DNA of 64,000 nt from Yoonia sp. (lineage in GTDB: Bacteria > Pseudomonadota > Alphaproteobacteria > Rhodobacterales > Rhodobacteraceae): contig NZ_JAFMHJ010000010.1 in the NCBI RefSeq assembly GCF_017854565.1, positions 9,307 to 73,306 of the forward strand, in the 5' to 3' direction. Under the pieces are notes generated by a model. It had not been told where the DNA came from. It did not search any database and saw only the letters and a program-made list of their open reading frames with translations. Position 1 is the stretch's first letter. The number at the start of each line of letters is the position of its first letter. This document shows, in pieces, positions 3,311 to 21,526 of this stretch. The translations under genes and the position numbers were made by a program.

Positions 3311-3321
3311 GGTCAAATGAT

Positions 3322-3345: not shown

Positions 3346-3423
3346 GCCTTTCGTTCACAGATGTTAACTGATCTTGCTGTGGCGTATCGCTACGTCCGCA
3401 CGCATGATCTTTGGAGAATGACG

Positions 3424-5414: not shown

Positions 5415-6124
5415 CTTCGATCCTGCCCCTGAAAATGTCCGGTGCCGTGGTGAAACGGCGGGGGAAAACCCTGCTGGGTCCGGTTGACCTGACGGTGTCG
5501 CAAACCGGTTTTACGATTGTGATGGGCCCAAATGGCGCCGGTAAGACGACCCTTTTGCGCGCGCTGCATGGCTTGGAACGGCTTTCTGGTGGACAGGTGC
5601 AATGGCAAATTCCGCTGCGCGACACGCTACAGCGGCAAGCCTTTGTGTTTCAGACCCCGATCATGATGCGCCGCTCGGTGCGCGATAATCTGGCCTATCC
5701 GCTGATCCTGCATGGCACACCCAAGGCTGCTGCGTATGCGCTGGCCGCCGACTGGGCCGGGCGCATTGGTCTGGGCCGGGCGCTTGATCAGCAAGCCCCC
5801 CAACTGTCGGGCGGCGAAAAACAAAAGCTGGCGCTGGCACGCGCGCTGATGCGGTCACCCGATATTCTTTTTCTGGACGAACCCTGCGCCAATCTGGACG
5901 GCCGCGCCATCCGCGAGATCGAAGCGATCTTGAAATCCGCGCAGGCAGGTGGCACCCGTATCCTCATGGCGACCCATGACATCGGGCAGGCCAGACGTTT
6001 GGCGAGTGATGTCGTGTTTCTCATGCATGGAAAAATAATCGAAATGGCCGCCGCCGATGCATTTTTCGGCGCACCCAAAACCCCACAGGCCGCCGCTTTG
6101 TTAAATGGAGATATCGTAGAGTGA
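5408..6124 (+). CDS. tupC: ABC transporter ATP-binding protein (TupC-type)
   Basis: Walker A GPNGAGKTT, signature LSGGEKQK, Walker B ILFLDEP. Overlaps tupB by 7 nt. Confidence 0.8.
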   Translation: MVTSILPLKMSGAVVKRRGKTLLGPVDLTVSQTGFTIVMGPNGAGKTTLLRALHGLERLSGGQVQWQIPLRDTLQRQAFVFQTPIMMRRSVRDNLAYPLILHGTPKAAAYALAADWAGRIGLGRALDQQAPQLSGGEKQKLALARALMRSPDILFLDEPCANLDGRAIREIEAILKSAQAGGTRILMATHDIGQARRLASDVVFLMHGKIIEMAAADAFFGAPKTPQAAALLNGDIVE

Positions 6125-6918
6125 CCCGTATACTTGCTCTGGTTCTTGGGCTGACAGGCACTATCGCCTCTGCCGAAGACCTTAAACTTGCCGTGACCAC
6201 ATCGTTCCACAATTCAGGTCTGTCAGAAATTCTGCTGCCTGCCATTGCCGAAGACACCGGCATCACCGTCCAGTTGCTTGTCGTGGGCACCGGTCAGGCG
6301 ATCCGTCTGGGCGAGGCGGGGGATGTCGATGCGATCCTTGTCCACTCGCGTCCCGCAGAAGATGCATTTCTGGCCGACGGCTACGGCACGCATCGCCGCG
6401 AAATCATGTACAATGACTTTGTTTTCATCGGTCCGGTTGCTGACCCTGCGGCCATCGCCGATGCAGATACTGCCGCCGATGCGCTGGCGCGCATTGCCCA
6501 GACCGAAGCCGTTTTTGTCAGCCGTGGCGACGATAGCGGAACCCACAAGAAAGAACTGTCTTTGTGGGATGCCGCCGACGTGTCGCGCGGCGGTGACTGG
6601 TATCGGCCAGTGGGTGCCGGCATGGGCGCTGCGCTGAACACGGCTGCCGGTATGAACGCCTACATTCTGGCCGACCGCGCCAGCTGGCTGAACTTTGGCA
6701 ACAAGGCTGATCTGGGTCTGTTGTTTGCAGGCGATCCGGTGCTGTTTAACCAATACGCCTACATCCCGGTCAATCCCGAATTGCACGGCCACATCAAAGC
6801 CGATCTGGCGGTGAAACTGGAAGACTGGCTGACATCGCCCCGCGCGGCAGAGCTGATCAACAGCTACACGATCAACGGTGAAACGCTGTTCACCTTCAAC
6901 GCGCAGCCCGCATCCTAG
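6121..6918 (+). CDS. tupA: periplasmic tungstate-binding protein (TupA-type)
   Basis: GTG start overlaps the tupC stop (GTGA). Signal peptide ...GTIASA. VTTSFHNSGL...VVGTGQAIRLGEAGDVDAILVH...FVSRGDDSGTH matches my recollection of the TupA family. Confidence 0.75.
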   Translation: MTRILALVLGLTGTIASAEDLKLAVTTSFHNSGLSEILLPAIAEDTGITVQLLVVGTGQAIRLGEAGDVDAILVHSRPAEDAFLADGYGTHRREIMYNDFVFIGPVADPAAIADADTAADALARIAQTEAVFVSRGDDSGTHKKELSLWDAADVSRGGDWYRPVGAGMGAALNTAAGMNAYILADRASWLNFGNKADLGLLFAGDPVLFNQYAYIPVNPELHGHIKADLAVKLEDWLTSPRAAELINSYTINGETLFTFNAQPAS

Positions 6919-7457
6919 TGGTGGTGATGGCCATGATCATGCCCGTGTTCATGATCATGCGGTTCGTCTTCATCTAGCGAGCCGTGAATGGCAAACTGAT
7001 CGATCCCCGCTGATTGGGGCTCGATCGACCTGAACCCTTCCTTCACGCCGGCCTCGGTCAGTTCGCGTGATACCATCAGCAGGGTGTTCGGGTCCTGACC
7101 GTCACATAATGCGATCATCTGCGCGATTTCATCTGCCGCCACGCCCTGTGCGGCCGCGACCGATGGCGCGCCATAGTGGCTGACGAAATGGGCGGCCAGT
7201 GCGGCGGTCAGGGCGTCGATTTCGACCTGCTCGACCTTGGTGACAGCCACGACCGACACCCGTCCGAATGTCTCAAGGCCCAGCCAGCCGTTGCTGAATG
7301 CCTGCCGCGCCTTGCCAGCCAGATCGCCGTCCGACCAGTTCGAAAACTCGAACCCGCCGGATATGCACCATTCACCCGTCCGGGCGGGCGCATGAAAGAT
7401 GTTCATGTCGCTTTCGTCAAAATGGATCGCGCGGGCAAGGTATTGGGCTGTCATCAT
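6915..7457 (-). CDS. conserved hypothetical protein with a C-terminal His-rich tail (DUF6505-like)
   Basis: 180-aa ORF ending DEDEPHDHEHGHDHGHHHH. Its start overlaps the stop of the upstream gene (7454-7457). The family label is from memory. Confidence 0.65.
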   Translation of the reverse strand: MMTAQYLARAIHFDESDMNIFHAPARTGEWCISGGFEFSNWSDGDLAGKARQAFSNGWLGLETFGRVSVVAVTKVEQVEIDALTAALAAHFVSHYGAPSVAAAQGVAADEIAQMIALCDGQDPNTLLMVSRELTEAGVKEGFRSIEPQSAGIDQFAIHGSLDEDEPHDHEHGHDHGHHHH

Positions 7458-8125
7458 GTTTCCAACAAACTGGTCAGTGGGATAAGTGTGGTCGTTTCGC
7501 CGTCCCGGCGCAACATGCCAAAACGTTCGTCAAGGCCGACAAAGTCGCCTTCGCCAAGGCCGTGCATCAACCCCTGCAATTCCGAATGCAGCGGTTTGAC
7601 ACCGTCATCGTCCCAGCGGTTGACCCAGACCAGCATGTGACGCGCCCAGCTTTCCAACAGCAAGACGGGGTCCACATCCATGCAGCCTTCGGCGTAAAGC
7701 GCCGTTTCGTCGGGCGTGTCGCCGGGATCGTCGGACGCGGGCCAAAGCGGTAGTTCCAGACCGATGATCAGCCAATCGGGGATGTCGTCGGGGACCGTCC
7801 CCGATGCTTTGGCCTGCAACCGGCCGCAAGCGCCGCCGTTCAATCGGATGCCGCCGTTCCAATCCAGATGCACGGCGACTTCTGGCGGGGCGACGGACCC
7901 CAAGGCGTTCTGAAACCCGATGCCGCAGGCCGGCAGCATCGCCATTGCATCTGCCAACGGAACCTCGGGCGCAAAGACGATGGCGGCGCGCAGGTCATTC
8001 CCGCTGAGGTTATAAATCACCGTGCCCGCGTCGCAGCCTTCGGTGGCCATGGCAACAGCGACATCCATGGGATTGTCGACCGTTGCCATGCCCGAAAGAA
8101 GCGGCGGAAAGACCGGCGCTGTCAT
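7454..8125 (-). CDS. biotin/lipoate A/B protein ligase-fold family protein (BPL_LplA_LipB-like, catalytic role unknown)
   Basis: 223-aa ORF with its stop coupled to the next gene. PPLLSG...CDAGTVIYN...LRAAIVFAPE...GGIRLNGGACG resembles the short BPL/LplA-like family that neighbours this type of FDH cluster. Confidence 0.6.
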   Translation of the reverse strand: MTAPVFPPLLSGMATVDNPMDVAVAMATEGCDAGTVIYNLSGNDLRAAIVFAPEVPLADAMAMLPACGIGFQNALGSVAPPEVAVHLDWNGGIRLNGGACGRLQAKASGTVPDDIPDWLIIGLELPLWPASDDPGDTPDETALYAEGCMDVDPVLLLESWARHMLVWVNRWDDDGVKPLHSELQGLMHGLGEGDFVGLDERFGMLRRDGETTTLIPLTSLLET

Positions 8126-9189
8126 GCGTGACCTGCGGCGATCAAGGTGCGTGCGACCACGCGAAACGCCTCTGCCTGCGGGCTGTCGGGTTTGGATACG
8201 ACAATCGGCGCGCCCCCGTCGGCGGCCAGACGGATGTCCAGATGCAAGGGCAATTCAGCCAACAGGGGCACCCCCAGCTTTGCCGCCTCTGCCGCCACGC
8301 CGCCATGGCCAAAGGTGTGTTCCTCGTGGCCGCAGTTGGAGCAGATGTGCGTGCTCATGTTTTCGATCATGCCAATGATCGGGGTGCCCAGCTGGTTGAA
8401 CATATCAATGCCCTTGCGCGCGTCGATCAGGGCCACGTCCTGCGGCGTCGAGACGATCACGGCACCTGTCACGTCGAACTTTTGCGCCAGTGTCATCTGC
8501 ACATCGCCGGTGCCGGGGGGCAGGTCCACGATCAGCACGTCAAGCGCGCCCCATTGCACCTGATTCATCATCTGCTGCAACGCGCCCATCAACATCGGGC
8601 CGCGCCAGACAACGGCCTGATCATCGTTTTGCATCAGGCCGATCGACATCATCGTCACGCCGTGGTTGCGCATCGGCAGGATCGTCTTGCCATCGGGTGA
8701 CGCAGGACGCCCCGAAACACCCAGCATACGGGGCTGCGATGGCCCGTAGACATCGGCGTCCAGCAGGCCAACGCGGCGCCCTTCGGCGGCCAGCGCACAG
8801 GCCAGATTGGCCGAGACCGTGGATTTGCCCACGCCGCCCTTGCCCGAGGCAATCGCAAGGATGCGATCAATGCCGGGGATCTTCTGCGGGCCCTTGGGTT
8901 CGGATTTACGCTGCGGCTTCAGATCCGGCGGCGCGGCAGGCGTGGTGTGCGCGGTCATGATGGCCGACACGTTGCCGATGCCCGGCATCGCCCTGAGCGC
9001 CGCTTCGGCTGCGGCGCGCACGGGTTCCATTTGTTGGGCCAGTGCAGGGGCCACTTCAAAGACAAAGCGCACGTTGCCGTCATCGACATTCAAGGCCCGG
9101 ACCAAACCGGCAGCCATGATATCATCGCCCGAGGCGGGGTCTTCAATCGTTTTCAGGGTCGCAATGACCGCGTCGCGGGTGATGCTCAC
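8122..9189 (-). CDS. apbC: Mrp/NBP35/ApbC-type iron-sulfur cluster carrier ATPase
   Basis: N-terminal DUF59/MIP18-like domain, deviant Walker A SGKGGVGKST and the CSNCGHEE CxxC motif. 355 aa. Confidence 0.9.
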   Translation of the reverse strand: MSITRDAVIATLKTIEDPASGDDIMAAGLVRALNVDDGNVRFVFEVAPALAQQMEPVRAAAEAALRAMPGIGNVSAIMTAHTTPAAPPDLKPQRKSEPKGPQKIPGIDRILAIASGKGGVGKSTVSANLACALAAEGRRVGLLDADVYGPSQPRMLGVSGRPASPDGKTILPMRNHGVTMMSIGLMQNDDQAVVWRGPMLMGALQQMMNQVQWGALDVLIVDLPPGTGDVQMTLAQKFDVTGAVIVSTPQDVALIDARKGIDMFNQLGTPIIGMIENMSTHICSNCGHEEHTFGHGGVAAEAAKLGVPLLAELPLHLDIRLAADGGAPIVVSKPDSPQAEAFRVVARTLIAAGHA

Positions 9190-9381
9190 TTACGCGTCCT
9201 TCCCGCTGATTTTGCCAGTCACGACATGCTCCAGACCCAGTTCGGGAATGGACAGGACCATCTTGGCTTCAAATGTCTTGCCGGGCGCTGCGTTGCGCAT
9301 CGCCTCTTCAATCGCTTGCTGCGATGTGACGCCGACCTGCTTGAGAAACTTGCGCATGGACATGTTGAAATCTTCGCTCAT
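9190..9381 (-). CDS. small conserved hypothetical protein (63 aa, DUF6494-like)
   Basis: Its stop abuts the apbC start with no gap. Sequence MSEDFNMSMRKFLKQVGVTSQQAIEEAMRNA..., soluble and helical. Confidence 0.55.
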   Translation of the reverse strand: MSEDFNMSMRKFLKQVGVTSQQAIEEAMRNAAPGKTFEAKMVLSIPELGLEHVVTGKISGKDA

Positions 9382-9444
9382 TTTCGTCTCCTGTCTGTTG
9401 CGCGCGATTGACGCTGCGGGGTTCGTCCCGCTAGCGTGGTCACC

Positions 9445-10185
9445 ATGCGCATTTTCCTAATTCTTCTGTGGCTCATACCTATAAGCGCTGGCGCGCAAGA
9501 CAACAGCATTCGGCTGGCGATCCCTGATCCTTTGTTGGAAACCGGGTTTATGGACTACTTGCTGCCGCGTTTTTCGCTCAAATCCGCGATCCGCGTGGAC
9601 CGTGTGCCCGTTGGTGCGCCCGCCGATCTGGTCCTGACCCGCGAACCCGCCGGGCAAGTGGTGTTCATTGGCGCCGATGCGCAGTGGTATCTGGACACGC
9701 AGATCGACAGCCCGACCGCCATGCGGTTCGCCGATTGGCTGACATCTGATGCGGGGGGCCGCGCCATCACAGGCTTTCAGCCGCAGGGTGACACGATATT
9801 CCTGTTGCCGCAACCCGACGCACCTGTCGTGGTCCGGGTCCCGATCAACCCGGCGCTGGCGGCCAAAGGGGGCGATCTGTCGCTGGATCACTGTGGGCGC
9901 TGTCATGTGGTCAGCGATGCCAACCGGATGAAGGGTATCGGCTCGACCCCGTCTTTTGCGCTGATCCGCACATTTTCCGACTGGGACACCCGGTTTCAAA
10001 CCTTTTACGTGCTCAAGCCGCACCCCGCCTTCACCCAGATCACGGATGTGACGGACCCATTCGATCCCGCGCGCCCATCGCCCATCGTGCCCCTGCACAT
10101 CACGGCAGAGGACCTGGACGCAATCATCGCCTTTGTGGCGACGATTGCCCCCGCTGATCTGGGCGCACCTATGCAATCTCAGTGA
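9445..10185 (+). CDS. periplasmic protein with a single CxxCH heme-c motif
   Basis: ORF 9436..10185, ATG at 9445. Signal peptide MRIFLILLWLIPISAGA. CGRCH motif in the middle. The segment FADWLTSDAGGRAITGF..GDTIFLL echoes the TupA C-terminus LEDWLTSPRAAELINSY..GETLFTF. Confidence 0.6.
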   Translation: MRIFLILLWLIPISAGAQDNSIRLAIPDPLLETGFMDYLLPRFSLKSAIRVDRVPVGAPADLVLTREPAGQVVFIGADAQWYLDTQIDSPTAMRFADWLTSDAGGRAITGFQPQGDTIFLLPQPDAPVVVRVPINPALAAKGGDLSLDHCGRCHVVSDANRMKGIGSTPSFALIRTFSDWDTRFQTFYVLKPHPAFTQITDVTDPFDPARPSPIVPLHITAEDLDAIIAFVATIAPADLGAPMQSQ

Positions 10186-12146
10186 TCCTTGCGCTTTGAC
10201 AGGTAGTCATCGGTCGTGCGGACGCGCGGGCGCTCTGCCCCGGCGAAGGGATTGTTTTCCGAATGATACTGCGCCTGTATCCGACAATTGTCACACATCT
10301 GGATCATCCGGGCCGCTGCCGGATTGGCGAACATCGCGTGTTTCCCGGCCAGCTTTTCGGTGATCTTGTCGATCGTTGATTTGACACCGAACAGGTTGCC
10401 GCATTCGACGCAGGCAAACGGCTCTTCTTCGTGCAATACCACCTGGGCAAATGCGCCATCAGTCAGGTTCAACTGCGGCTTGAGGGTAATCGCATTCTCG
10501 GGGCAGATGTTGCTGCACAGACCGCACTGCAAACACGCATCTTCCTGAAACCGCAACTGCGGCTTGTCTTCGTTGTCCATCAACGCGCCCGATGGGCAAA
10601 GCGATACGCATGACAGACACAGGGTACAGGCATCGGTATCCACCAGAACCGCGCCATAGGGGGCGGTGTCGGGCAGGGGGATGATCGTGGCATCCGTCAG
10701 CGCCTTGGCTGCCGTCCGCGCCACTTGGCGTCGCGAACCCATGGGCAGGATCGGGCTTGCGACGGCGCGCGCCTCTGTGCCGTCAAACAAGGTGTCCGAC
10801 AAGGCGTCGGGGTCTGCAATATCCAGCAGCCGGATCGCCTTGCCGCTGATCGCCAGTCCCAGCGCCAGTTCGCGCGACAACGTATCGCGGTCCGACTTGG
10901 GCGACAGCAAAATATCTACGGTCGCAAATCCAGCCCCCAGACCTGCCAACATCTCGGCATGGCCGAAACCAGCCAGCGCCGTCACTTCCAGAGGGATCAC
11001 ATTCGCGGGCAGACCGCGCCCGAAACGTGCAGCCAGCTGGATCATTTCGATCCCGTGGCTGTCATCATGCACCAGCAACCGCGGCTGGGTCCCGCCGGCC
11101 TTGCGAAACGTGCTGGCCAGCGTTTGGATGCGGCGGAACAGGCTGTCGACTGGCGGGGCATCAAACGTAATAGCCCCCGAAGGACAAAGCGCCGAACACG
11201 CGCCGCACCCGGCACAGATCATCGGATCAATCGCCACATGTTCGCCCGCCGACGTGATCGCACCCGTCGGGCAGGCATTCAGGCAATTCGAACAGGCCGG
11301 TTGTTCGGCACGCGAATGCGCACAAAGCGATGGTTCAAGCCGCACATACAGCGGCTTTTCAAAGGTGCCGACCATCTGTGCCGCCTCAAACACGGCATCG
11401 GCAACCGATGGTGCATGCTTGGGATCGGCGCGCAGATAGCCGTCACGCTTTTCATGGGCTGAAAACAGCGGCGTATCGCCTGACAGGTCCAGTATGATGT
11501 CGCACTGCGACGTGGCGCCATCCTGCGGCGCGGAAAACCGGGGGTGGCCCCGCCCGCCCGGCTCGAGGTTCTGGACGGCATCCAGCCGCAGATCGAACGC
11601 GCCCAGTGATCCGCTCGCCCGTGTCACCCGGCCTTTGATCACATCGAAGCGGTCCGTTGCATCAGGATCGCTGGCATCGGTCAAAAGCAAGGTCACGCTC
11701 AGCACCTCACCCAGCTTTGCGGCCGCGTCCAGCGCGACCTGACCCGCGCCGATAATCAGGCAAACCCCATCTGACGTTACGTCACGTACCTTGGGTTCGA
11801 TCTGCGGCAGCAACGCTTCCGCCGCGAGGGCCGCCATCTTTGGACCATTTGTCGCAGGGTCATCAGACCAACCCGCCCGGTCGCGCAGATCTACAAAAAG
11901 TGGTAACTCCGCGTTAACTTCTTGGGCGATTTCTTCAAAAATGCTCTGCTCTTGACCGCAGGCGATGATTACTCCGCCATTTGTGATCGCTTTTGTCGCG
12001 CTCTCGATTTCTTTTGTGCACAAAGCGGTGTGTAAACGCGAACACTTCAGGCCGGTTGCACCCTCAATCGCGGCTGTGTCTATTGTTTGGCTTCCCAAAC
12101 AATCACATATAATCAATTGTTTAACTGTATTTGGCTGTTGGGTCAT
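10179..12146 (-). CDS. large cytoplasmic polyferredoxin (4Fe-4S dicluster domains, Rossmann-like GxGxxA segment, C-terminal CxxC...CxxC)
   Basis: ORF 10179..12251. ATG 12146 (MTQQPNTVKQL) is preceded by GGGAGAGA. Motifs: CAGCGACSALCP, CTLCLSCVSLCP, CLQCGLCSNICP, the variant C..CSNCLNACP, LIIGAGQVALDAAAKLG, and CVECG...CDNC. Confidence 0.8.
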   Translation of the reverse strand: MTQQPNTVKQLIICDCLGSQTIDTAAIEGATGLKCSRLHTALCTKEIESATKAITNGGVIIACGQEQSIFEEIAQEVNAELPLFVDLRDRAGWSDDPATNGPKMAALAAEALLPQIEPKVRDVTSDGVCLIIGAGQVALDAAAKLGEVLSVTLLLTDASDPDATDRFDVIKGRVTRASGSLGAFDLRLDAVQNLEPGGRGHPRFSAPQDGATSQCDIILDLSGDTPLFSAHEKRDGYLRADPKHAPSVADAVFEAAQMVGTFEKPLYVRLEPSLCAHSRAEQPACSNCLNACPTGAITSAGEHVAIDPMICAGCGACSALCPSGAITFDAPPVDSLFRRIQTLASTFRKAGGTQPRLLVHDDSHGIEMIQLAARFGRGLPANVIPLEVTALAGFGHAEMLAGLGAGFATVDILLSPKSDRDTLSRELALGLAISGKAIRLLDIADPDALSDTLFDGTEARAVASPILPMGSRRQVARTAAKALTDATIIPLPDTAPYGAVLVDTDACTLCLSCVSLCPSGALMDNEDKPQLRFQEDACLQCGLCSNICPENAITLKPQLNLTDGAFAQVVLHEEEPFACVECGNLFGVKSTIDKITEKLAGKHAMFANPAAARMIQMCDNCRIQAQYHSENNPFAGAERPRVRTTDDYLSKRKDH

Positions 12147-12338
12147 TGGCTCTCTCCCGCGGTTCTGCGCTTCCGCAGTCGGCAGAGTGTAGCCATGTAT
12201 TGCCGGGAACGTAAACCGGAAACGGTGTCGTGATATGCCGCATCGCAGCATCGCATTTTAGCAAAAAAGTGCTTTCCGAACAGTCCGATTTGGTCCAGCA
12301 TAGAGGTTAACGACGTCCGAGAAAGCCCGAGGAAAATT

Positions 12339-12902
12339 GTGATCCACAATCCGCATCAATACCAGACCATGCCCTTGGGCATTGTCGTGCGACGCGCGCC
12401 CGGTGCGACGCGTTGGGCCAAGTGGGCATGGAAAGTGGTTTCGGTTCTTCCCGGTGCTGCGGGTGCGGATTGGAAACCGCTGCGCGAAGACGGCGATGTG
12501 GTTGAATATCATGCCGCAACCCGCCCGCTGGAATTGCACGGTGCCGAATGCGAAGCCTATATGGCCGGTTTGGCCGATAAAACACCCGCCGTTTACGTCG
12601 TAATGCGCCGCAGCGATGATGCTCAACGCCCGTTCGATGTGCTGTTGGTGACCGCTTCACCCTACGAGGCGCAGGATTACTGCGACAACGGCGAAGACAT
12701 CGTCGAAAAAGTCGCGATGCCGGATGGTATCATCGGCTGGGTCCGCGACTTTACCGACCGCTTTTTCGAAGAAGAAGTGTTCATAAAGCGGCGCCGCGAC
12801 AAGCATCGGACGGACCGGGTCGAGGATGGCGTTGGCGATGCGCGCATCCAGCAGTTGACGGATGTCTACCGTGCGCCGGGCCGCAAGGATCCAGCCGCAT
12901 GA
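12339..12902 (+). CDS. DUF3305 domain protein
   Basis: 187-aa ORF divergent from the polyferredoxin gene. LGIVVRRAPGATRWAKWAWKVVSVLPG...VYVVMRR matches my recollection of DUF3305. The start is uncertain (GTG 12339 or ATG 12369). Confidence 0.65.
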   Translation: MIHNPHQYQTMPLGIVVRRAPGATRWAKWAWKVVSVLPGAAGADWKPLREDGDVVEYHAATRPLELHGAECEAYMAGLADKTPAVYVVMRRSDDAQRPFDVLLVTASPYEAQDYCDNGEDIVEKVAMPDGIIGWVRDFTDRFFEEEVFIKRRRDKHRTDRVEDGVGDARIQQLTDVYRAPGRKDPAA

Positions 12903-13498
12903 CCAAACCCGCAAGTGATTTCTGGTCGCGCCGCAAGGCAAAGGTCGCAGACGAGGCAGAGGCCGAGGTGGCGCTGCAGCCGGACGTTGCACCCGAGGTG
13001 TCGACAGAAGACCTGTCTGACGAAGAAATTCTGGCTGTGCTGGAACTGCCTGACCCCGATACGCTGGTGCTGGGCGACGACATCAAGGGCTTTATGTCCA
13101 AGGCGGTCCCCGAACATCTGCGCCGCCGGGCGCTGCGCAAGCTATGGCGTTTGAACCCCGTTTTGGCCTGTCTGGACGGCTTGAACGACTATGACGGCGA
13201 TTTCACCGATGCGGCAACCGTGTTTCCCGACATGAAGACCGCATATCAGGTCGGCAAGGGCATGTTGGCCCATGTGCAGGAAATGGCACGTCAAGCAGAG
13301 GTTTTGCTAGCTTCGAACACAGATGACGTTGTAGAACAAATAGGGGAGCAAAATTCAGATGAGAATCAAGAGGTTGATACCGTGATCGCGGAGGCGCCCA
13401 AAGCGCCCCAAGCCGTTGCATCACAGGGTCATGCCGCGCCGCGCCGTCGGATGCGCATGTCATTTGAACAAGACGCCCCGTCGGAGATGACATCATGA
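12899..13498 (+). CDS. DUF3306 domain protein
   Basis: ATGA overlap with the upstream gene. N-terminus FWSRRKAKV, acidic linker, and LRRRALRKLWRLNPVLACLDGLNDYDGDFTD are typical of DUF3306. Confidence 0.65.
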   Translation: MTKPASDFWSRRKAKVADEAEAEVALQPDVAPEVSTEDLSDEEILAVLELPDPDTLVLGDDIKGFMSKAVPEHLRRRALRKLWRLNPVLACLDGLNDYDGDFTDAATVFPDMKTAYQVGKGMLAHVQEMARQAEVLLASNTDDVVEQIGEQNSDENQEVDTVIAEAPKAPQAVASQGHAAPRRRMRMSFEQDAPSEMTS

Positions 13499-14106
13499 GC
13501 GCGATGGCGGATATAGCCGAAACCAGCACCGAAGACCGTATGCGTGCTGATCTATATAATTATCTTGGGCTAATGCTGTCCGCTCCGCCCGATGAGATGT
13601 TGCTCGCGCAGACTGCTGATCTTCAGGGAGACGACAGTGTGCTGGGCAAATCAATCACGCAACTTGCGCGCGTGGCCAAAGTGTCAAAGCCCAAGGCAGT
13701 GCGAAGCGAGTTTAACGCGCTGTTCATCGGGCTTGGCCGGGGCGAGCTTTTGCCATTTGCCAGCTATTACCTCACCGGCTTTCTAAACGAAAAGCCGCTC
13801 GCCGCATTGCGTGGCGATATGATGGCGCGCGGCATTGCGCGTGCGCCCAATGTTTTCGAACCAGAAGACAACATCGCCTCCTTGCTGGAGATGATGGGTG
13901 GGCTGATCGTCGGGCGTTTCGCCGGGCCGGCGGCGGATCTGCAAAGTCAGAAGGTGTTTTTTAACAAGCATGTCGGGTCTTGGGCAGGTCACTTTTTCAG
14001 TGACCTTGAAGCTGCGAAAAATTCGGTTCTCTATGCCTCGGTTGGGGCAGTGGGGCGAAATTTGATGGATATCGAACGCGAAGCGTTTCGAATGATAGCG
14101 GATTAA
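13495..14106 (+). CDS. TorD/DmsD-family redox-enzyme maturation chaperone
   Basis: ATGA overlap with the upstream gene. RADLYNYLGLMLSAPP...EFNALFIGLGRGELLPFASYYLTGF is the TorD-family core. Confidence 0.8.
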   Translation: MSAMADIAETSTEDRMRADLYNYLGLMLSAPPDEMLLAQTADLQGDDSVLGKSITQLARVAKVSKPKAVRSEFNALFIGLGRGELLPFASYYLTGFLNEKPLAALRGDMMARGIARAPNVFEPEDNIASLLEMMGGLIVGRFAGPAADLQSQKVFFNKHVGSWAGHFFSDLEAAKNSVLYASVGAVGRNLMDIEREAFRMIAD

Positions 14107-14158
14107 TCCGTGGATAACGGCGGGACCCCCGCCAAAAGAAGAGAAGGGAAACGGTCAC

Positions 14159-14344
14159 ATGGCCAATGAAAAAGAAGTCGGCGCAAGCCGTCGTAATTTT
14201 CTCAAACTCGGAATTGCAGCACCAGCACTCGTTGCCGCAGCGGCGTCGGGAACAGCGGCAGCGGCACAGCCGGTCGATCTGACATCCGGAAAAATGCAAG
14301 ACACCGATCATACCCGCGCCTACTTGGCCAGTGCCCGGTTCTAA
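14159..14344 (+). CDS. 61-aa twin-arginine signal peptide protein (formate dehydrogenase region Tat target)
   Basis: SRRNFLKLGIAAPALVAAAASGTAAAA is a Tat signal. The gene lies directly upstream of fdhA. Confidence 0.7.
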   Translation: MANEKEVGASRRNFLKLGIAAPALVAAAASGTAAAAQPVDLTSGKMQDTDHTRAYLASARF

Positions 14345-14419
14345 GGATTTTCGGGTCTTGGCCCGAAGTAACGCAACCCAGCGAGACCGGGTCAGCCGGT
14401 GCCAGCAAGGGAGAGAAGA

Positions 14420-17296
14420 ATGTTAAAGAAAAAGACCAACGGGGTCGCCCGACGTGCCAGCATCGACACGCAAGCGACCAAAGGATCTGTCGACCGGCGT
14501 ACGTTCCTGCGCGGGTCCGGCCTGACAATCGGCGGTTTGGCCGCGATTGCAGCGACGGGTGGCAATGTAACCGCCGCGCACGCACAGCAGGCCGTCAATA
14601 ACGCCGTTCAGACGATCAAATCCATTTGTACGCATTGTTCAGTGGGCTGTACCGTGATTGCCGAAGTCGACAATGGCGTCTGGACAGGTCAGGAACCCGG
14701 CTGGGACAGCCCGTTCAATCTGGGTGCGCATTGCGCCAAAGGTGCGGCCGTGCGCGAACATGCCCATGGTGAGCGTCGCCTGAAGTACCCAATGAAAAAA
14801 GAGAACGGCGAATGGGTTCGTATCAGCTGGGAAACCGCGATCGACGAAATCGGCGATAAGATGTTGCAGATCCGCGAAGAAAGCGGTCCTGACTCGGTCT
14901 ACTGGCTTGGTTCCGCCAAGCACAACAATGAACAGGCCTATCTGTTCCGCAAATTTGCGGCCTATTGGGGCACCAACAACGTCGATCACCAGGCGCGCAT
15001 CTGCCACTCGACCACGGTTGCCGGTGTGGCGAACACATGGGGCTACGGCGCCATGACCAACAGCTACAATGACATGCATAACTCCAAGGCGATCTTTCTG
15101 ATCGGCGGCAACCCGGCAGAAGCACACCCGGTGTCGCTGCTGCACATGCTCAAAGCCAAAGAGCAGAACAACGCGCCATTGATCGTGTGCGATCCGCGTT
15201 TCACACGGACTGCGGCCCATGCTGACGAATATGTACGCTTCCGGCCCGGCTCGGACGTTGCATTGGTCTGGGGTATCCTGTGGCACATCTTTGAAAACGG
15301 ATGGGAAGACAAAGAGTTCATCCGCACCCGCGTTTGGGGCATGGATCAGATCCAGGACGAAGTGAAAAAGTGGAACCCGGAGGAAGTCGAGCGCGTCACC
15401 GGTGCCCCCGGTGAACAGCTGCGCCGCGTGGCCTTTACCTTGGCAAACAACCGTCCCGGCACCGTGATCTGGTGCATGGGTGGCACGCAGCACACCAACG
15501 GTAACAACAACACCCGCGCTTACTGCATCCTTCAGCTTGCTCTTGGCAACATGGGTACATCCGGCGGCGGCACGAACATTTTCCGCGGTCACGACAACGT
15601 GCAGGGCGCGACGGACCTTGGCGTTCTGGCCGATACGCTGCCCGGCTACTACGGTCTGGCACCGGGATCATGGGCGCACTGGGCACGTGTCTGGAACGAG
15701 GATCTGGATTGGCTCAAGGGTCGGTTCTCGGATGCGTCTTATGGCGACACGTCGATGATGAACCTCAACGGTATCACGGTCGGTCGCTGGATCGACGGTG
15801 TGCTGGAAGACAAGGAAAACATCGACCAGCCCGATAATACCCGTGCGATGGTGCTGTGGGGCCACGCGCCCAACTCGCAGACCCGTCAGAAGGAAATGAA
15901 GACGGCGATGGAAAAACTCGACCTGTTGGTCGTTGTGGACCCTTATCCAACCGTATCTGCCGTGCTGCATGATCGTACCGATGGCGTGTATCTGCTGCCC
16001 GCTTGTACCCAGTTCGAAACCCGTGGTTCTGTCACCGCTTCAAACCGTTCGTTGCAGTGGCGTGACAAAGTGGTCGAGCCACTCTTCGAGAGCCTTCCAG
16101 ACCACACGATCATGGCGAAATTCGCCACCAAGTTCGGGTTTGCGGATAAAATCTTCCGCAACATCGCTGTGGATGAAGCCGGTGAGCCAAACATCGAAGA
16201 CCTCACCCGCGAATTCAACAGCGGTATGTGGACGATCGGTTATACTGGCCAAAGCCCTGAGCGCTTGAAAATGCACATGGCCAACCAGCACACCTTCGAC
16301 CGCACGACGCTGCGTGCGATCGGTGGCCCGGCCGATGGTGATTTCTACGGTCTGCCATGGCCTTGCTGGGGTACCGCCGAGATGAACCACCCCGGTTCGG
16401 CGAACCTCTATGATATCTCCATTCCTGTCGCCGAAGGTGGCATGGGCTTCCGTGCCCGCTACGGGGTAGAGCGGGATGGCGACAATCTGCTGGCCGAAGG
16501 CGTCTACCCGGTTGGGTCGGAAATTCAGGACGGTTACCCTGAATTCACGATGCAGATGCTGATGGATCTGGGCTGGGACGGTGATCTGACCGCAGACGAG
16601 CGTGCTGCGATTGATGCCGTTGCCGGGGCAAGCACCAACTGGAAAACCGACCTTTCGGGCGGTATCCAGCGGGTTGCGATCAAACATGGCTGTGCCCCTT
16701 ATGGCAACGCCAAGGCCCGCGCCGTGGTCTGGACCTTCCCTGATCCGGTACCGCTGCACCGCGAACCGCTGTACAGCAACCGCCGCGATCTGGTCGCTGA
16801 TTACCCGACCTACGAAGACCGCAAGTTCTGGCGCGTTCCAACCCTTTACAAGTCAATCCAGCAGAATGATTTCTCGCAAGAGTATCCGATCATCCTGACC
16901 TCTGGCCGTCTTGTGGAATACGAGGGTGGCGGCGACGAAAGCCGGTCCAACCCATGGTTGGCCGAGCTTCAACAGGACATGTTCGTGGAAATCAACACCC
17001 GCGATGCCAACAACCTTGGTGTCCGTGACGGCGCACAAGTCTGGGTCGAAGGCCCGGAGGGTGGCAAAGTCAAGGTGATGGCAATGGTCACCGAACGGGT
17101 GGGCGTGGGCGTTGCCTTCATGCCATTCCACTTTGGTGGTCACCTCGAAGGCAAGGATCTGCGCGACAAGTATCCCGACGGTGCAGACCCGTTTGTCTTG
17201 GGCGAAAGCAGCAACACCGCACAAACATATGGCTACGATTCAGTGACCCAGATGCAAGAGACCAAAGCGACCCTCTGCAAAATCTGGACAGCGTAA
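14420..17296 (+). CDS. fdhA: formate dehydrogenase catalytic subunit (Mo/W-bisPGD), Tat-exported, Cys variant
   Basis: ORF 14399..17296. ATG 14420 follows AGGGAGAGAA. Tat motif DRRTFLRGSG. The 4Fe-4S motif is CTHCSVGC..C. The active-site region HQARICHSTT uses TGC (15002-15004) where Sec enzymes carry TGA. Confidence 0.92.
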   Translation: MLKKKTNGVARRASIDTQATKGSVDRRTFLRGSGLTIGGLAAIAATGGNVTAAHAQQAVNNAVQTIKSICTHCSVGCTVIAEVDNGVWTGQEPGWDSPFNLGAHCAKGAAVREHAHGERRLKYPMKKENGEWVRISWETAIDEIGDKMLQIREESGPDSVYWLGSAKHNNEQAYLFRKFAAYWGTNNVDHQARICHSTTVAGVANTWGYGAMTNSYNDMHNSKAIFLIGGNPAEAHPVSLLHMLKAKEQNNAPLIVCDPRFTRTAAHADEYVRFRPGSDVALVWGILWHIFENGWEDKEFIRTRVWGMDQIQDEVKKWNPEEVERVTGAPGEQLRRVAFTLANNRPGTVIWCMGGTQHTNGNNNTRAYCILQLALGNMGTSGGGTNIFRGHDNVQGATDLGVLADTLPGYYGLAPGSWAHWARVWNEDLDWLKGRFSDASYGDTSMMNLNGITVGRWIDGVLEDKENIDQPDNTRAMVLWGHAPNSQTRQKEMKTAMEKLDLLVVVDPYPTVSAVLHDRTDGVYLLPACTQFETRGSVTASNRSLQWRDKVVEPLFESLPDHTIMAKFATKFGFADKIFRNIAVDEAGEPNIEDLTREFNSGMWTIGYTGQSPERLKMHMANQHTFDRTTLRAIGGPADGDFYGLPWPCWGTAEMNHPGSANLYDISIPVAEGGMGFRARYGVERDGDNLLAEGVYPVGSEIQDGYPEFTMQMLMDLGWDGDLTADERAAIDAVAGASTNWKTDLSGGIQRVAIKHGCAPYGNAKARAVVWTFPDPVPLHREPLYSNRRDLVADYPTYEDRKFWRVPTLYKSIQQNDFSQEYPIILTSGRLVEYEGGGDESRSNPWLAELQQDMFVEINTRDANNLGVRDGAQVWVEGPEGGKVKVMAMVTERVGVGVAFMPFHFGGHLEGKDLRDKYPDGADPFVLGESSNTAQTYGYDSVTQMQETKATLCKIWTA

Positions 17297-17309
17297 GGAG
17301 AACAAGAAG

Positions 17310-17903
17310 ATGGCAAGAGCAAAGTTTCTCGTCGATGCCGAACGCTGCATTGAATGCAACGCATGCGTCACGGCTTGTAAGAACGAACACGAGGTCCCTT
17401 GGGGCATCAACCGCCGCAAGGTGGTAACGATCAATGATGGTAAGCCGGGCGAGCGTTCAATCTCGGTCGCTTGCATGCATTGTTCCGATGCGCCCTGCAT
17501 GGCCGTGTGTCCGGTCGACTGTTTCTACCAGAACGAAGAAGGCGTCGTTCTGCATTCAAAAGACCTGTGCATCGGGTGCGGTTACTGTTTCTATGCCTGC
17601 CCATTCGGCGCGCCGCAGTATCCGCAGGCTGGTAACTTCGGTTCGCGCGGCAAGATGGACAAATGTACCTTCTGCGCAGGCGGCCCCGAAGAGAACAACA
17701 GTCAGGCCGAATTCCAAAAGTATGGCCGCAACCGGATCGCAGAAGGCAAGTTGCCAATCTGTGCCGAAATGTGCGCCACAAAGGCCCTGCTTGCCGGTGA
17801 CGGCGACGTGGTGTCGGGCATCTACCGTGAACGCGTTGTCGCACGCGGTTTCGGGTCCGGCGCATGGGGCTGGGGCACGGCCTACGACCAAAAAGGCGGC
17901 TGA
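17310..17903 (+). CDS. fdhB: formate dehydrogenase iron-sulfur subunit (4x 4Fe-4S ferredoxin-type)
   Basis: RBS AAGGAGA. Motifs CIECNACVTAC, CMHCSDAPCMAVCP, CIGCGYCFYACP, CTFC...CAEMC. Confidence 0.9.
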   Translation: MARAKFLVDAERCIECNACVTACKNEHEVPWGINRRKVVTINDGKPGERSISVACMHCSDAPCMAVCPVDCFYQNEEGVVLHSKDLCIGCGYCFYACPFGAPQYPQAGNFGSRGKMDKCTFCAGGPEENNSQAEFQKYGRNRIAEGKLPICAEMCATKALLAGDGDVVSGIYRERVVARGFGSGAWGWGTAYDQKGG

Positions 17904-18008
17904 ACCCGTCTTTGACCGTAAAAGGTGCGGGGGTGCTCCATCAGGATCATCCCCGTCGCTACGATTACATTCCTGGGGGTGACCCCCAACCGACCAAGGA
18001 GCCTGCAG

Positions 18009-19214
18009 ATGACGCGCGCCTTCTTCGCTATTGTTGTTACGTGTTTTTTGTCTGTTTTGGGTTCCGTATCCCTAGCTCAAGAGACATCGACGACTGACCG
18101 CTCTGCCACCGGTGGTGCGCAGACCCTCGAAGATATCATGGCACGCCAGCAAGGTTTGCCAATTGATGACAGTTTTCGCAGCGACGCGATTGGAAATCCT
18201 GAACAGGCTGCACCGCTGACTGACCAGCTTGGCAGTCTCGGGGGCTTGTCCGAACCGGAGGTGTGGCGCGCGATGCGCTACAACAAGGCCGATATTTCCG
18301 GGCAGGCGCGCGGTCCTGCCGCGAACGTCTTGATCCAAGACAGCGGCATGTGGTGGCTGTTATTCCGCGATGGGCCTCTGGCGACCTATGGATCATACCT
18401 GTTGGGCGGCACGATCGCGCTGCTTGCCCTGTTTTTCCTGATCCGTGGCCGGGTCCGCATCGACGGCGAAAAGACAGGCCGCACGATCACCCGCTTCAAG
18501 GCATTTGAACGCTTCGGCCATTGGCTGATGGCGGGCTCCTTCGTCGTCCTTGGGCTGACCGGGCTGATCACGCTGTTCGGGCGCAAGATCATGATCCCCT
18601 ACTTTGGCCATGACAGCTTTGCGACGATGGCGATTGCGTCCAAATGGATACACAACAACATCTCATGGGCCTTTATGATCGGACTGGTGATGGTGTTCTT
18701 CATGTGGGTCCTTGAAAATATCCCCAACCGTCTTGACCTGAAATGGATCGCGGTCGGTGGCGGGCTGTTCAAAAAGGGCGTCCACCCCCCCGCCAAGAAA
18801 TTCAACGCCGGTCAAAAGGTGATCTTCTGGTCGGTCATCGTGTTGGGAACCTCGATTTCCGTCTCCGGGCTTTCGCTGCTGTTCCCGTTTGAACTGCCCA
18901 TGTTCGCGAAAACATTTGTCCTGCTCAACAGCACTGGCCTGCCGGAAATGCTGGGCTTTGGCACCCTGCCAACCCAGTTGACACCGCACGCCGAAATGCA
19001 GTTCGCGCAGCTATGGCATGCGATCATTTCCTTTGTGCTGATGGCGATTATCCTCGCCCATATTTACATCGGTTCGATCGGCATGGAAGGCGCGTTCGAT
19101 GCGATGGGATCGGGCGAAGTCGAAGAACAATGGGCCCGCGAACACCACAGCCTCTGGGTCGATGAGGTCAAGGAAAAACAATCCGCCTCTGCCCAAACGA
19201 CCCCTGCTGAATAG
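18009..19214 (+). CDS. fdhC: formate dehydrogenase cytochrome b (gamma) subunit with a long N-terminal periplasmic extension
   Basis: ORF 17925..19214. ATG 18009 follows AAGGAG. Signal-like MTRAFFAIVVTCFLSVLGSVSLA, then multiple TM helices with conserved His residues (FERFGHWLMA, HAEMQFAQLWHAII, AHIYIG). Confidence 0.85.
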   Translation: MTRAFFAIVVTCFLSVLGSVSLAQETSTTDRSATGGAQTLEDIMARQQGLPIDDSFRSDAIGNPEQAAPLTDQLGSLGGLSEPEVWRAMRYNKADISGQARGPAANVLIQDSGMWWLLFRDGPLATYGSYLLGGTIALLALFFLIRGRVRIDGEKTGRTITRFKAFERFGHWLMAGSFVVLGLTGLITLFGRKIMIPYFGHDSFATMAIASKWIHNNISWAFMIGLVMVFFMWVLENIPNRLDLKWIAVGGGLFKKGVHPPAKKFNAGQKVIFWSVIVLGTSISVSGLSLLFPFELPMFAKTFVLLNSTGLPEMLGFGTLPTQLTPHAEMQFAQLWHAIISFVLMAIILAHIYIGSIGMEGAFDAMGSGEVEEQWAREHHSLWVDEVKEKQSASAQTTPAE

Positions 19215-19226
19215 GAGCGACAGATC

Positions 19227-19355
19227 ATGAAAACGATGTTCGCAGCGTTTGCCATTTCTGCATTGATCTCGGTCGGTGCCTACTATGGCTTGCACGCAGC
19301 AGGCTTTGGCGCGGCCGAGCATACGGTCAGCGTTTCAGTCCGACTTGACGATTGA
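19227..19355 (+). CDS. unlisted 42-aa single-TM mini-protein downstream of fdhC
   Basis: Below the ORF-track size cut-off. AGGAG at 19213-19217 lies 9 nt before ATG 19227. Sequence MKTMFAAFAISALISVGAYYGLHAAGFGAAEHTVSVSVRLDD, stop TGA 19353-19355. Confidence 0.45.
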   Translation: MKTMFAAFAISALISVGAYYGLHAAGFGAAEHTVSVSVRLDD

Positions 19356-19374
19356 TCGGCGCAGATAGACGACG

Positions 19375-19402
19375 CTGCCGCCCCGATTGATCCGGGCGGC
19401 AG
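19375..19402 (+). terminator. 9-bp GC hairpin at the end of the fdh operon, no T-tract
   Basis: CTGCCGCCC-cgattgatcc-GGGCGGCAG starts 20 nt after the mini-ORF stop. Confidence 0.4.
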
Positions 19403-21524: not shown

Positions 21525-21526
21525 TT

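Follow-up and report, generated by a model that had tools for sequence, protein, structure and literature searches.

Organization of the formate dehydrogenase locus

The window analyzed here is a stretch of 64,000 nucleotides (nt) from Yoonia sp. (contig NZ_JAFMHJ010000010.1). Positions 4710 to 19355 carry the genes of a cysteine-type formate dehydrogenase (FDH), FdhABC, exported through twin-arginine translocation (Tat) and of the FDH3 or Shewanella FdhA1B1C1 kind, together with a set of helper genes. An earlier note on the same DNA had described an FDH flanked by two wings of accessory genes, and the open reading frames (ORFs) that it listed are present where it placed them. Families were assigned by profile searches against Pfam and NCBIfam. 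What we call the left wing is a gapless run on the minus strand, from 9381 down to 6915. It encodes DUF6494 (63 aa, 9190-9381; Pfam PF20104, 1.5e-28), an iron-sulfur (Fe-S) carrier ATPase of the Mrp/ApbC type (355 aa, 8122-9189; Pfam FeS_assembly_P and ParA/NUBPL, 1.1e-98), a ligase-fold protein with BPL_LplA_LipB_2 and DUF4444 domains (223 aa, 7454-8125; Pfam PF16917, 2.4e-74) and DUF6505 with its His/Asp tail (180 aa, 6915-7457; Pfam PF20115, 1.9e-77).

The right wing consists of a cytoplasmic polyferredoxin on the minus strand (655 aa, 10179-12146), recognized by its Cys cluster motifs, and of the first four genes of a plus-strand run that begins at 12339. These encode DUF3305 (12339-12902; 187 aa from a GTG start, but probably 177 aa from M11 at 12369; Pfam PF11749, 5.6e-40), DUF3306 (199 aa, 12899-13498; Pfam PF11748, 2.5e-18), a TorD/NarJ-family chaperone (13495-14106; Pfam Nitrate_red_del, 2.9e-27) and a 61-aa Tat-signal peptide of the FdhX kind (14159-14344). 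The same run continues with FdhA, the catalytic subunit for molybdenum or tungsten bis(pyranopterin guanine dinucleotide) (Mo/W-bisPGD) (14399-17296), FdhB, the four-cluster Fe-S subunit (17310-17903), and FdhC, the membrane cytochrome b subunit (17925-19214). It ends with a hydrophobic, single-helix mini-ORF of 42 aa directly 3' of FdhC (19227-19355). Two further plus-strand elements belong to the region, a periplasmic c-type cytochrome gene (9445-10185, with the start at 9436 or 9445; Pfam Cytochrom_C, 5.6e-4) and an ATP-binding cassette (ABC) transporter of the TupB, TupC and TupA kind (4710-6918; permease 4710-5414, ATPase 5408-6124, binding protein 6121-6918).

The tight packing of these genes, also pointed out in the earlier note, was confirmed by inspection of the sequence. 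The overlaps at 12899-12902 and 13495-13498 are 4 nt long and read ATGA on the plus strand, and those at 8122-8125 and 7454-7457 appear as TCAT, or ATGA when read on the minus strand. There is no gap at 9189/9190, where a GTG start comes directly after the TAA stop. Promoter and terminator scans over 6500-19800 performed no better than on shuffled sequence, and an Rfam search gave zero matches in the window.

The enzyme and the adjacent transporter

The closest solved structure to the enzyme is PDB 9VAP. FdhA aligned with its A chain, the Shewanella oneidensis FdhA, at 1413 bits, and FdhB with its B chain at 4.2e-98; the A and B chains are the only ones in the solved structure that match window proteins. 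FdhB scored 341.6 bits against a cut-off of 240 for the equivalog model NF038355, "FDH3 subunit beta", and FdhC scored 137.4 against 115.85 bits for the formate-DH-gamma model TIGR01583 and also matched Pfam Ni_hydr_CYTB. FdhC carries an unusual N-terminal extension of 185 aa. In FdhA a single [4Fe-4S] motif, CTHCSVGC, was found, along with a twin-arginine leader, DRRTFLR, in which SVDRRTFLRGSGL aligned with GLNRRQFLKSAGL of the Shewanella protein. The start of FdhA is probably the ATG at 14420, which is preceded by a AAGGGAGAG site. The Cys of QARICHSTTVA aligned with the selenocysteine of E. coli FdnG (QARV-Sec-HGPTVA), and the stretch ARICHSTTVA is identical in the window FdhA and the Shewanella FdhA, with Cys in both.

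The 9VAP entry is a cryo-electron microscopy structure of S. oneidensis FdhA1B1, a tungsten enzyme reported to be oxygen tolerant, which contained 0.78 W and 0.05 Mo per protein despite the extra molybdate supplied (PMC13066108). The named families that best match the neighboring transporter genes are also those for tungstate (NCBIfam; TupB 8.2e-46, TupA 1e-50). The earlier note had called this transporter tungstate-type. The best matches agree with that name, but both scores lie under the equivalog cut-offs (TupA 172.6 against 400, TupB 156.6 against 320), and therefore the specificity is likely but not proven by score. The Tup genes adjoin DUF6505 in 17 of 80 Rhodobacterales loci (described below), and Tup-like genes also lie beside the cluster in Sinorhizobium, in Variovorax and in a metagenome locus (L091), three classes in all. 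The suggestion that the FDH might depend on tungsten is thus supported by the metal of its closest solved homolog and by the recurrence of a Tup-like transporter beside the cluster, and we consider the window enzyme probably tungsten-dependent by analogy. Because the tungsten was measured in the Shewanella homolog and the Tup scores are under their cut-offs, this is a good inference and not a demonstration.

Genes for proteins with a helix-turn-helix (HTH) domain and a domain like periplasmic binding proteins (PBP) were seen beside the cluster in Sinorhizobium (L081 9137-10012) and in the metagenome locus (L091 828-1718). This domain pair resembles the tungstate-responsive regulators of sulfate reducers. 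No homolog of these regulators was found in the window.

The 42-aa ORF after FdhC resembles one of 47 aa that overlaps the FdhC end on a Loktanella salsilacus plasmid (L098 14832-14975). The two show a similar F..F/A..A..Y.(L/M).(H/Q)AG pattern, and the product may be a conserved mini-subunit. On a Tateyamaria omphalii plasmid, a gene for an FKBP-type peptidyl-prolyl isomerase lies between FdhB and FdhC (L087 5079-5747).

Conservation of the linkage between helper genes and the enzyme

In a first scan, an alignment of the ligase-fold protein was compared with one genome per species. At least 567 relatives were found and 80 loci were returned, all of them from Rhodobacterales. These 80 loci were searched with every window protein, with a flank limit of 10 kb. 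Mrp and DUF6505 were each present in 79 of the 80 loci, the polyferredoxin in 76, DUF3305, TorD and the Tat peptide in 72 each, DUF3306 and FdhA in 69 each, FdhB in 66, DUF6494 in 63 and the cytochrome in 61. Nearly all of the misses were genes cut off by a contig end or by the flank limit.

Since linkage within one order could reflect inherited synteny, the search was widened past the Rhodobacterales. A second scan, with a three-sequence alignment of Rhizobiales ligase-fold proteins against soil metagenomes, gave 80 contigs, and for each gene we counted only the contigs long enough to show it. In these Rhizobiales-type clusters DUF6505 was found on 61 of 65 contigs, DUF6352 on 43 of 44, the polyferredoxin and DUF3305 each on 37 of 38, and DUF3306 on 36 of 37, while TorD (28/28), FdhA (20/20) and FdhB (15/15) were found on every contig with room for them. 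Mrp was not part of these clusters.

Identity to the window ligase-fold protein is just 25-27% in Sinorhizobium, Bradyrhizobium, Microvirga and Methylobacterium. There the genes for the ligase-fold protein, DUF6505, DUF6352, DUF3305, DUF3306, TorD, the Tat peptide, FdhA, FdhB and FdhC follow each other in this order on one strand, and the polyferredoxin gene is divergent from the run. Over other alphaproteobacteria, including Azospirillum, the ligase-fold identity is 25-32% and the gene lies within the FDH operon; in Azospirillum brasilense it ends 18 nt upstream of DUF3305. In total, helper genes adjoin the FDH in more than 150 other genomes and metagenome contigs. The accessory genes therefore co-occur with this FDH type in the Rhodobacterales, on the Rhizobiales-type contigs and in other alphaproteobacteria, which was the first point on which the earlier note had let its proposal stand or fall. 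We conclude that the link of the left wing to the enzyme is real, and it has outlasted a complete reorganization of gene order.

Plasmid records gave a similar picture. The ligase-fold protein was found in 84, DUF3305 in 89 and the FDH3 beta subunit in 99 of them, in the same genera and at almost equal counts. Many roseobacters (Pseudosulfitobacter, Sulfitobacter, Sagittula, Tateyamaria, Alloyangia and Salipiger) carry the complete block, with Mrp, on non-mobilizable plasmids of 60-790 kb, which suggests that the block travels as a single unit.

The Variovorax cluster runs DUF3305, DUF3306, polyferredoxin, TorD, Tat peptide and FdhABC, with two MoeA paralogs and Tup genes after it, and its polyferredoxin gene overlaps both the DUF3306 and the TorD genes. 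The helper set is layered. The right wing is the old core, to which the alphaproteobacteria add the ligase-fold protein and DUF6505, chiefly the Rhodobacterales add Mrp and DUF6494, and the Rhizobiales add DUF6352.

Helper proteins of the right wing

The DUF3305 protein matches an NCBIfam model named "MobA, DUF3305 domain-containing". In one homolog (P0468), a MobA-like nucleoside triphosphate transferase domain (residues 11-170) is fused to DUF3305 (residues 221-365). Its operon reads FdhD, MobA-DUF3305, DUF3306, TorD, Tat peptide and FdhABC, and adjoins a Tup-like transporter. The guanine dinucleotide form of the cofactor is the product of MobA, and FdhD carries out cofactor sulfuration and insertion, so that this fusion and its operon place DUF3305 at the cofactor step. 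Three distant DUF3305 relatives lie on contigs of just 2-4 kb and gave little further information. A second fusion, in another lineage, joins DUF3305 to DUF3306 (P0478). Because of this fusion, and because the two genes overlap in every operon, the two proteins probably act together.

DUF3306 consists of an N-terminal FWSRRK, an acidic linker and a conserved C-terminal domain. The pattern W[SA][RAN][RL][KRQ] is present in 120 of 126 homologs, in 74 of them as WSRRK. No hydrophobic segment was found in DUF3305 or DUF3306, which a 2015 survey of NarJ-family chaperones had termed "putative membrane proteins" (Bay 2015, PMC4464133). More generally, no signal peptide or membrane segment was found in any of the helpers.

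The TorD-family protein scored 95.8 bits with Nitrate_red_del, against a Pfam cut-off of 22.2, and is the counterpart of FdhT in Shewanella and FdhM in Campylobacter. In all loci its gene directly precedes those of the Tat peptide and FdhA, and this position suggests that it may bind the Tat leader of FdhA. The 61-aa peptide scored 30.9 bits with TIGR02811, "formate dehydrogenase region TAT target", under the cut-off of 48.45. Its size (the family is below 70 aa), its SRRNFLK motif (in full SRRNFLKLG) and its position fit the model, but its C-terminal motif QDTDHTRAYL diverges from Y-[HRK]-x-[TS]-x-H. The TDHTRAY within it is a divergent form of the YRETEHVxxYY of the Rhizobiales and betaproteobacterial copies. 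In every locus examined, the gene for this peptide is immediately upstream of FdhA.

Helper proteins of the left wing

Nearly all of the ligase-fold protein (residues 5-221 of 223) matches PDB 3BFM (1e-83), a protein from Silicibacter sp. TM1040. The entry is a structural-genomics deposit with the title "biotin protein ligase-like protein of unknown function". The canonical ligase profile PF03099 gave no match to the window protein even at E<=5. To find the residue equivalent to the catalytic lysine K183 of E. coli BirA, we used a weak profile alignment (hhalign E=0.12) together with the Pfam and PDB fold assignments. With this low-confidence alignment, the position is Ala in the window protein. 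Its five commonest residues in 120 close homologs, Ser, Arg, Ala, Thr and Leu, account for 104 of them and none is Lys; in four distant homologs it is Leu, Val or Arg. A glycine-rich biotin loop is not evident. The earlier note had been struck by the lack of a biotin or lipoyl acceptor near this gene, and no biotinyl or lipoyl acceptor domain was found in any of the annotated clusters. Since there is no Lys at the position equated with the catalytic lysine of BirA, the ligase-fold protein is probably a non-catalytic pseudo-enzyme that binds rather than ligates. Conservation across orders is mainly of Pro, Gly and Trp residues, plus one His.

Four Cys residues that are invariant in the 120 closest homologs had suggested an Fe-S or metal site fed by Mrp. 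This was rejected as a feature of the family, because the Cys residues are missing in the Rhizobiales and Azospirillum homologs and one of them is Val in 3BFM. Two insertions beside this gene or its partner were also seen. In Methylobacterium bullatum a gene for a phosphate-selective porin O/P lies between the ligase-fold gene and DUF6505 (L086 11945-13231), and five soil contigs (L163, L164, L167, L173 and L174) carry an insertion of about 1.1 kb between DUF6505 and DUF6352.

The DUF6505 protein ends in a His/Asp tail, HDHEHGHDHGHHHH. The tail was rejected as a defining feature since its length varies; most homologs end in DDEPHQH and it is expanded in a few. The Mrp/ApbC protein scored 343.3 bits with the NCBIfam ApbC model, just under the cut-off of 348. 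It contains the GKGGVGKST deviant Walker A P-loop and a CSNC motif and matches both PF01883 and PF10609. DUF6494 begins with an invariant, Tat-signal-like FNMSMRKFLKQVGVTSQQAIE, and the SMRKFLK motif is present in 66 of 66 homologs, including a Sinorhizobium copy that is 53% identical overall. When all six frames of the whole window were searched with [ST]xRxF[LI]K, the only matches were DUF6494 and the FdhX-like 61-aa peptide.

The polyferredoxin and the neighboring cytochrome

The longest ORF of the polyferredoxin is 690 aa. The 655-aa form described in the earlier note is preferred, with an ATG at 12146 that is preceded by the Shine-Dalgarno-like site GGGAGAGAG; this form aligns with homologs over about 620-710 residues. 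The protein contains 27 Cys, which form three CxxCxxCxxxCP motifs, one variant motif (C275...C285xxC288xxxC292P) and a C-terminal CxxC...CxxC pair. Its N-terminal domain of 280 aa has no Pfam or PDB relative, and its PDB match is limited to the ferredoxin part, to HdrA. Neither a signal peptide nor a transmembrane segment was found in it. It scored 43.2 bits with the napF model TIGR00402, and because this is under the cut-off of 102.2 it is not a member of the NapF family.

The periplasmic CxxCH protein that the earlier note placed next to the polyferredoxin does exist, but its gene is on the plus strand (9436/9445-10185) and converges on the polyferredoxin gene with an overlap of 7 nt. The 239-aa ORF opposite to it on the minus strand was rejected as an Arg-rich antisense artifact. 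The cytochrome has a signal peptide and a CGRCH at residue 153. Its N-terminal half gave a weak match to the TupA profile, and two of its stretches, residues 2-57 and 83-119, align collinearly with the window TupA at residues 3-56 and 221-257 of the latter (E about 1e-4 each). From these alignments, the N-terminal half looks like a collapsed TupA remnant whose middle was deleted, with a heme domain attached C-terminally. In the Rhizobiales its place is taken by an unrelated WD40 beta-propeller protein, annotated as a c-type cytochrome, whose gene also converges on the polyferredoxin gene (L081 10437-11696; L082 10426-11715). A WD40-related gene, which appears frameshifted, was observed 3' of FdhC on the Tateyamaria plasmid (L087 about 2750-3900).

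Proposed function of the helper set

We propose that the block is one functional unit, in which cytoplasmic helpers build a membrane-anchored, periplasmic, cysteine-type tungsten FDH before its export by the Tat pathway. As a whole this is rather probable in our judgment, and the roles suggested below for individual helpers are each much less sure. A role in maturation is preferred to a structural one because of the MobA-DUF3305 and DUF3305-DUF3306 fusions, the gene orders in Variovorax and Shewanella, the helpers' lack of signal peptides and membrane segments, and the solved structure, in which the A and B chains alone correspond to window proteins. FdhD, the Fe-S protein and FdhA of Shewanella are jointly down-regulated in a regulator mutant.

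A possible sequence of events is as follows. Tungstate would be imported by TupABC, and MoeA, MobA and FdhD, encoded outside the window (no homolog of the three was found in its 64 kb), would make the sulfurated W-bisPGD cofactor. The TorD-family chaperone would hold the Tat leader of FdhA until FdhA is loaded. The DUF3305 and DUF3306 pair may hand the cofactor over from MobA or FdhD to the precursor bound to the chaperone. The Mrp/ApbC protein and the four-cluster polyferredoxin would supply or maintain the five [4Fe-4S] clusters of FdhAB, much as NapF does for NapA. The ligase-fold protein, its ligase chemistry presumably lost, and DUF6505 could form a binding or scaffold module specific to alphaproteobacteria, joined by DUF6352 in the Rhizobiales and by Mrp and DUF6494 in the Rhodobacterales. 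Loaded FdhAB would then be exported by Tat and dock on FdhC. Precedent for two of these steps exists, as the Fe-S loading of NapA requires NapF, a four-cluster protein of the cytoplasm, and chaperones of the NarJ/TorD family proofread cofactor loading (PMC10609526).

Several observations weigh against this proposal. The Variovorax cluster contains no ligase-fold, DUF6505 or Mrp gene, and no match to the ligase-fold protein was found in the betaproteobacterial and gammaproteobacterial plasmids that carry the FDH3 beta subunit. The FDH3 operon on plasmid AZO_p4 of Azospirillum lipoferum 4B (L083, L097) is preceded by TorD and the Tat peptide alone; this replicon does carry DUF3305 and DUF3306, but as an isolated pair about 100 kb distant. 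No helper genes lie near a second FDH3-like copy found on a Loktanella plasmid. These two cases imply that a requirement for the helpers in cis is not universal. The link of Mrp and DUF6494 to the enzyme is confined to some lineages. In one locus of an alphaproteobacterial, Rhodobacterales-like metagenome-assembled genome (L080, 20.7 kb), the left wing and the cytochrome are present with no polyferredoxin or FDH within 10 kb on either side, and an alanine racemase gene takes the place of the polyferredoxin; this is the sole clear exception among the 80 loci. Shewanella FdhAB was made from a plasmid with only fdhT, fdhX, fdhA and fdhB, in the native host that keeps the other genes on its chromosome (PMC13066108). 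A protein with four or more clusters also has the look of an electron wire. Finally, fold searches with DUF3305 and DUF6505, of the kind that the earlier note had called for, gave no functional lead. DUF3305 was modeled well by AlphaFold, with a predicted local distance difference test score (pLDDT) of 83 and about 88-96 over residues 1-130, but no fold neighbor was found for it in the PDB (best E=1.3, template modeling score below 0.2). The DUF6505 model was poor (pLDDT 55), Foldseek found nothing in the PDB with it, and sequence and profile searches gave only weak compositional matches to ribosomal protein L7/L12 and designed proteins.

Electron coupling was weighed as an alternative. Here the polyferredoxin, perhaps with DUF3305 and DUF3306, would dock at the cytoplasmic side of FdhC or of a different membrane partner and pass electrons from periplasmic formate to an acceptor in the cytoplasm, or the other way when CO2 is reduced, with the c-type cytochrome as a second, periplasmic acceptor. 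The four [4Fe-4S]-type motifs and further Cys pairs of the polyferredoxin are as in electron-wire proteins, the FdhC extension of 185 aa would fit, and the cytochrome gene converges on the polyferredoxin in 61 of the 80 Rhodobacterales loci, with another annotated c-type cytochrome at this position in the Rhizobiales. However, the cytochromes at this position are not homologous between the orders, and the polyferredoxin gene belongs to the maturation half of the operon both in betaproteobacteria, between DUF3306 and TorD, and in Shewanella, beside fdhT. The A. lipoferum FDH3 operon has no polyferredoxin gene nearby, and the fusion partner of DUF3305 is MobA, a protein of cofactor synthesis and no redox protein. 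We therefore regard electron coupling as unlikely. The extra helpers might instead protect or repair the enzyme, keeping the O2-labile sulfido-tungsten cofactor and the Fe-S clusters intact in an oxic cytoplasm before export. The fullest helper sets occur in roseobacters, rhizobia, Methylobacterium and Azospirillum, which are aerobes; the homologous Shewanella enzyme is oxygen tolerant, and Mrp-type carriers and ferredoxins would fit cluster repair. Yet Pfam searches found no thiol-redox or known repair domain among the helpers. Such a role, which sequence data cannot separate from primary maturation, seems to us quite unlikely.

It is also conceivable that the left wing has no functional tie to the enzyme and is a housekeeping Mrp Fe-S operon brought beside the FDH by shared ancestry or plasmid carriage. 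Mrp/ApbC is a general carrier, and its score near the ApbC equivalog cut-off, the restriction of the first scan to one order and the L080 left wing with no FDH in its flanks would all fit. This is very unlikely, given that the FDH operon of Rhizobiales and Azospirillum includes the ligase-fold protein and DUF6505 without Mrp, at 25-32% identity and in another gene order. On plasmids, moreover, the ligase-fold gene was found only in genera that also carry DUF3305 and the FDH3 beta subunit, and the block travels on roseobacter plasmids of 60-400 kb with Mrp included. The least credible alternative is an active ligase that biotinylates or lipoylates an FDH subunit or helper, or attaches some other acyl group to it. 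It draws on the family fold (PF16917; 3BFM) and on the frequent annotation of such proteins as BirA in public sources, and we hold it to be extremely unlikely in view of the absence of Lys at the K183-aligned position (with the low-confidence BirA alignment), of an evident biotin loop, of a PF03099 match and of an acceptor domain, and of the loss in other orders of the Cys residues that are invariant in the Rhodobacterales.

Within the maturation proposal, a more speculative idea concerns the Tat-like motifs of DUF6494 and DUF3306, which were noticed after the fact and are not part of the main conclusion. The Tat consensus is S-R-R-x-F-L-K. The SMRKFLK of DUF6494 and the WSRRK of DUF3306 correspond to two halves of it, neither of them with a hydrophobic signal core, and hence the two proteins may be leader mimics. 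NarJ, a chaperone of the same family as TorD, binds a remnant Tat peptide on the non-exported NarG, and for this reason DUF6494 and DUF3306 might dock on the TorD-family chaperone, or alternatively on TatBC, while the pseudo-ligase might hold a nucleotide-linked cofactor intermediate. Docking of this kind could bring DUF3305 to the bound FdhA precursor, or could compete with the leader so that export waits for loading. We consider the idea unlikely. If it is true, exported tungsten or molybdenum enzymes would have a Tat-mimic checkpoint of a so far undescribed kind.

Comparison with known systems

By published annotation, the cluster of Shewanella oneidensis MR-1 (SO_4503-SO_4511) reads FdhD, two hypothetical proteins, Fe-S protein, FdhT, FdhX and FdhA1B1C1. 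It resembles the window in the identical active-site stretch ARICHSTTVAGVANTWGYGA, in the TorD-type chaperone and small Tat peptide upstream of FdhA, and in an Fe-S protein gene and two hypothetical genes ahead of these. By the published description, however, no ligase-fold, DUF6505, DUF6494 or Mrp gene is reported for it. The Shewanella helpers and enzyme form one co-directional operon, whereas in the window the polyferredoxin is divergent and FdhD lies outside the 64 kb.

The FDH3 of Methylobacterium and Methylorubrum (fdh3ABC) is the basis of the model NF038355, whose cut-off the window FdhB passes. In Methylobacterium bullatum and Microvirga, the polyferredoxin is divergent from a run of ligase-fold protein, DUF6505, DUF6352, DUF3305, DUF3306, TorD and FdhABC. 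The helpers of this type are merged into the FDH operon, with DUF6352 present and Mrp missing, whereas the window has two divergent wings, with Mrp and DUF6494 and no DUF6352.

Campylobacter jejuni has FdhM (a TorD homolog), a small Tat protein, FdhABC and FdhD, with the TorD-type chaperone in the operon as in the window. Its FDH is a selenoprotein, and a tungstate TupABC transporter was reportedly linked to it by Smart et al. in 2009. DUF3305, DUF3306, the polyferredoxin and the ligase-fold protein are not described for the C. jejuni enzyme. FdhM, an operon-encoded TorD-family chaperone, is required for the periplasmic FdhABC (PMC10609526). The FdnGHI and FdoGHI enzymes of E. coli are likewise periplasmic three-subunit FDHs whose catalytic subunit carries a Tat leader and whose anchor is a cytochrome b, but they use selenocysteine and molybdenum, and FdhE instead of a TorD-type chaperone. 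No FdhE-like gene was recognized with Pfam and NCBIfam among the cluster genes examined.

The nearest functional analog of the polyferredoxin is NapF, which is also cytoplasmic, also has four tetra-cysteine motifs, and loads the Fe-S cluster of a Tat-exported bisPGD enzyme before export. The periplasmic nitrate reductase also has a dedicated leader-binding chaperone, NapD. Unlike NapF, the window polyferredoxin is 655 aa long, with the N-terminal domain of 280 aa that has no family match and an extra C-terminal Cys4 site.

Earlier work has described the enzyme itself, its TorD-type chaperone, the family of the small Tat peptide and the association with DUF3305, DUF3306 and a fer4 gene. DUF3305, DUF3306, a fer4 gene and the Tat peptide were found upstream of about 60% of torD-fdh operons (Bay 2015, PMC4464133). 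The earlier note's statement that the accessory proteins have no described role agrees with full-text searches by DUF name, which gave a single bioinformatic mention. Literature searches for DUF6505, DUF6494, DUF4444, BPL_LplA_LipB_2, 3BFM and fdh3 yielded no functional study of the helpers. We also found no report in the literature searched that links the ligase-fold protein, DUF6505, DUF6352, DUF6494 or a dedicated Mrp to this enzyme, nor one that describes the two DUF3305 fusions, the missing Lys at the aligned position or the Tat-like motifs. For this enzyme class, a 2023 review still calls the division of labor between the chaperone and FdhD unclear. The block is an expanded form of the enzyme-specific maturation gene sets of exported molybdenum and tungsten enzymes, not a new category.

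Up to eight uncharacterized genes thus travel with the enzyme over at least three alphaproteobacterial orders, and part of the helper set reaches the betaproteobacteria and, by published annotation, the gammaproteobacteria. As judged from their sequences and neighborhoods, these genes are candidates for building the enzyme, and clues to where they act come from the two DUF3305 fusions (to MobA and to DUF3306), from the Tat-like motifs and from the missing Lys at the aligned ligase position. Metal-dependent FDHs of this type are wanted as oxygen-tolerant catalysts of CO2 reduction, and the Shewanella homolog was published as such in 2026. If the helpers are needed for tungsten or Fe-S loading, they would be obvious parts to co-express when such hard-to-produce enzymes are made in foreign hosts, and five Pfam DUF families and the structural-genomics orphan 3BFM would gain a first function.

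Other features of the window

Two long ORFs rich in Arg and Pro, at 9457-10176 on the minus strand and 21002-21547 on the plus strand, look like antisense or out-of-frame artifacts of high-GC DNA. Base skew between 50000 and 56000 differs from that in the remainder of the window, with an unusually strong positive GC skew (up to 0.22) and an AT skew that is unusually negative (to -0.22).

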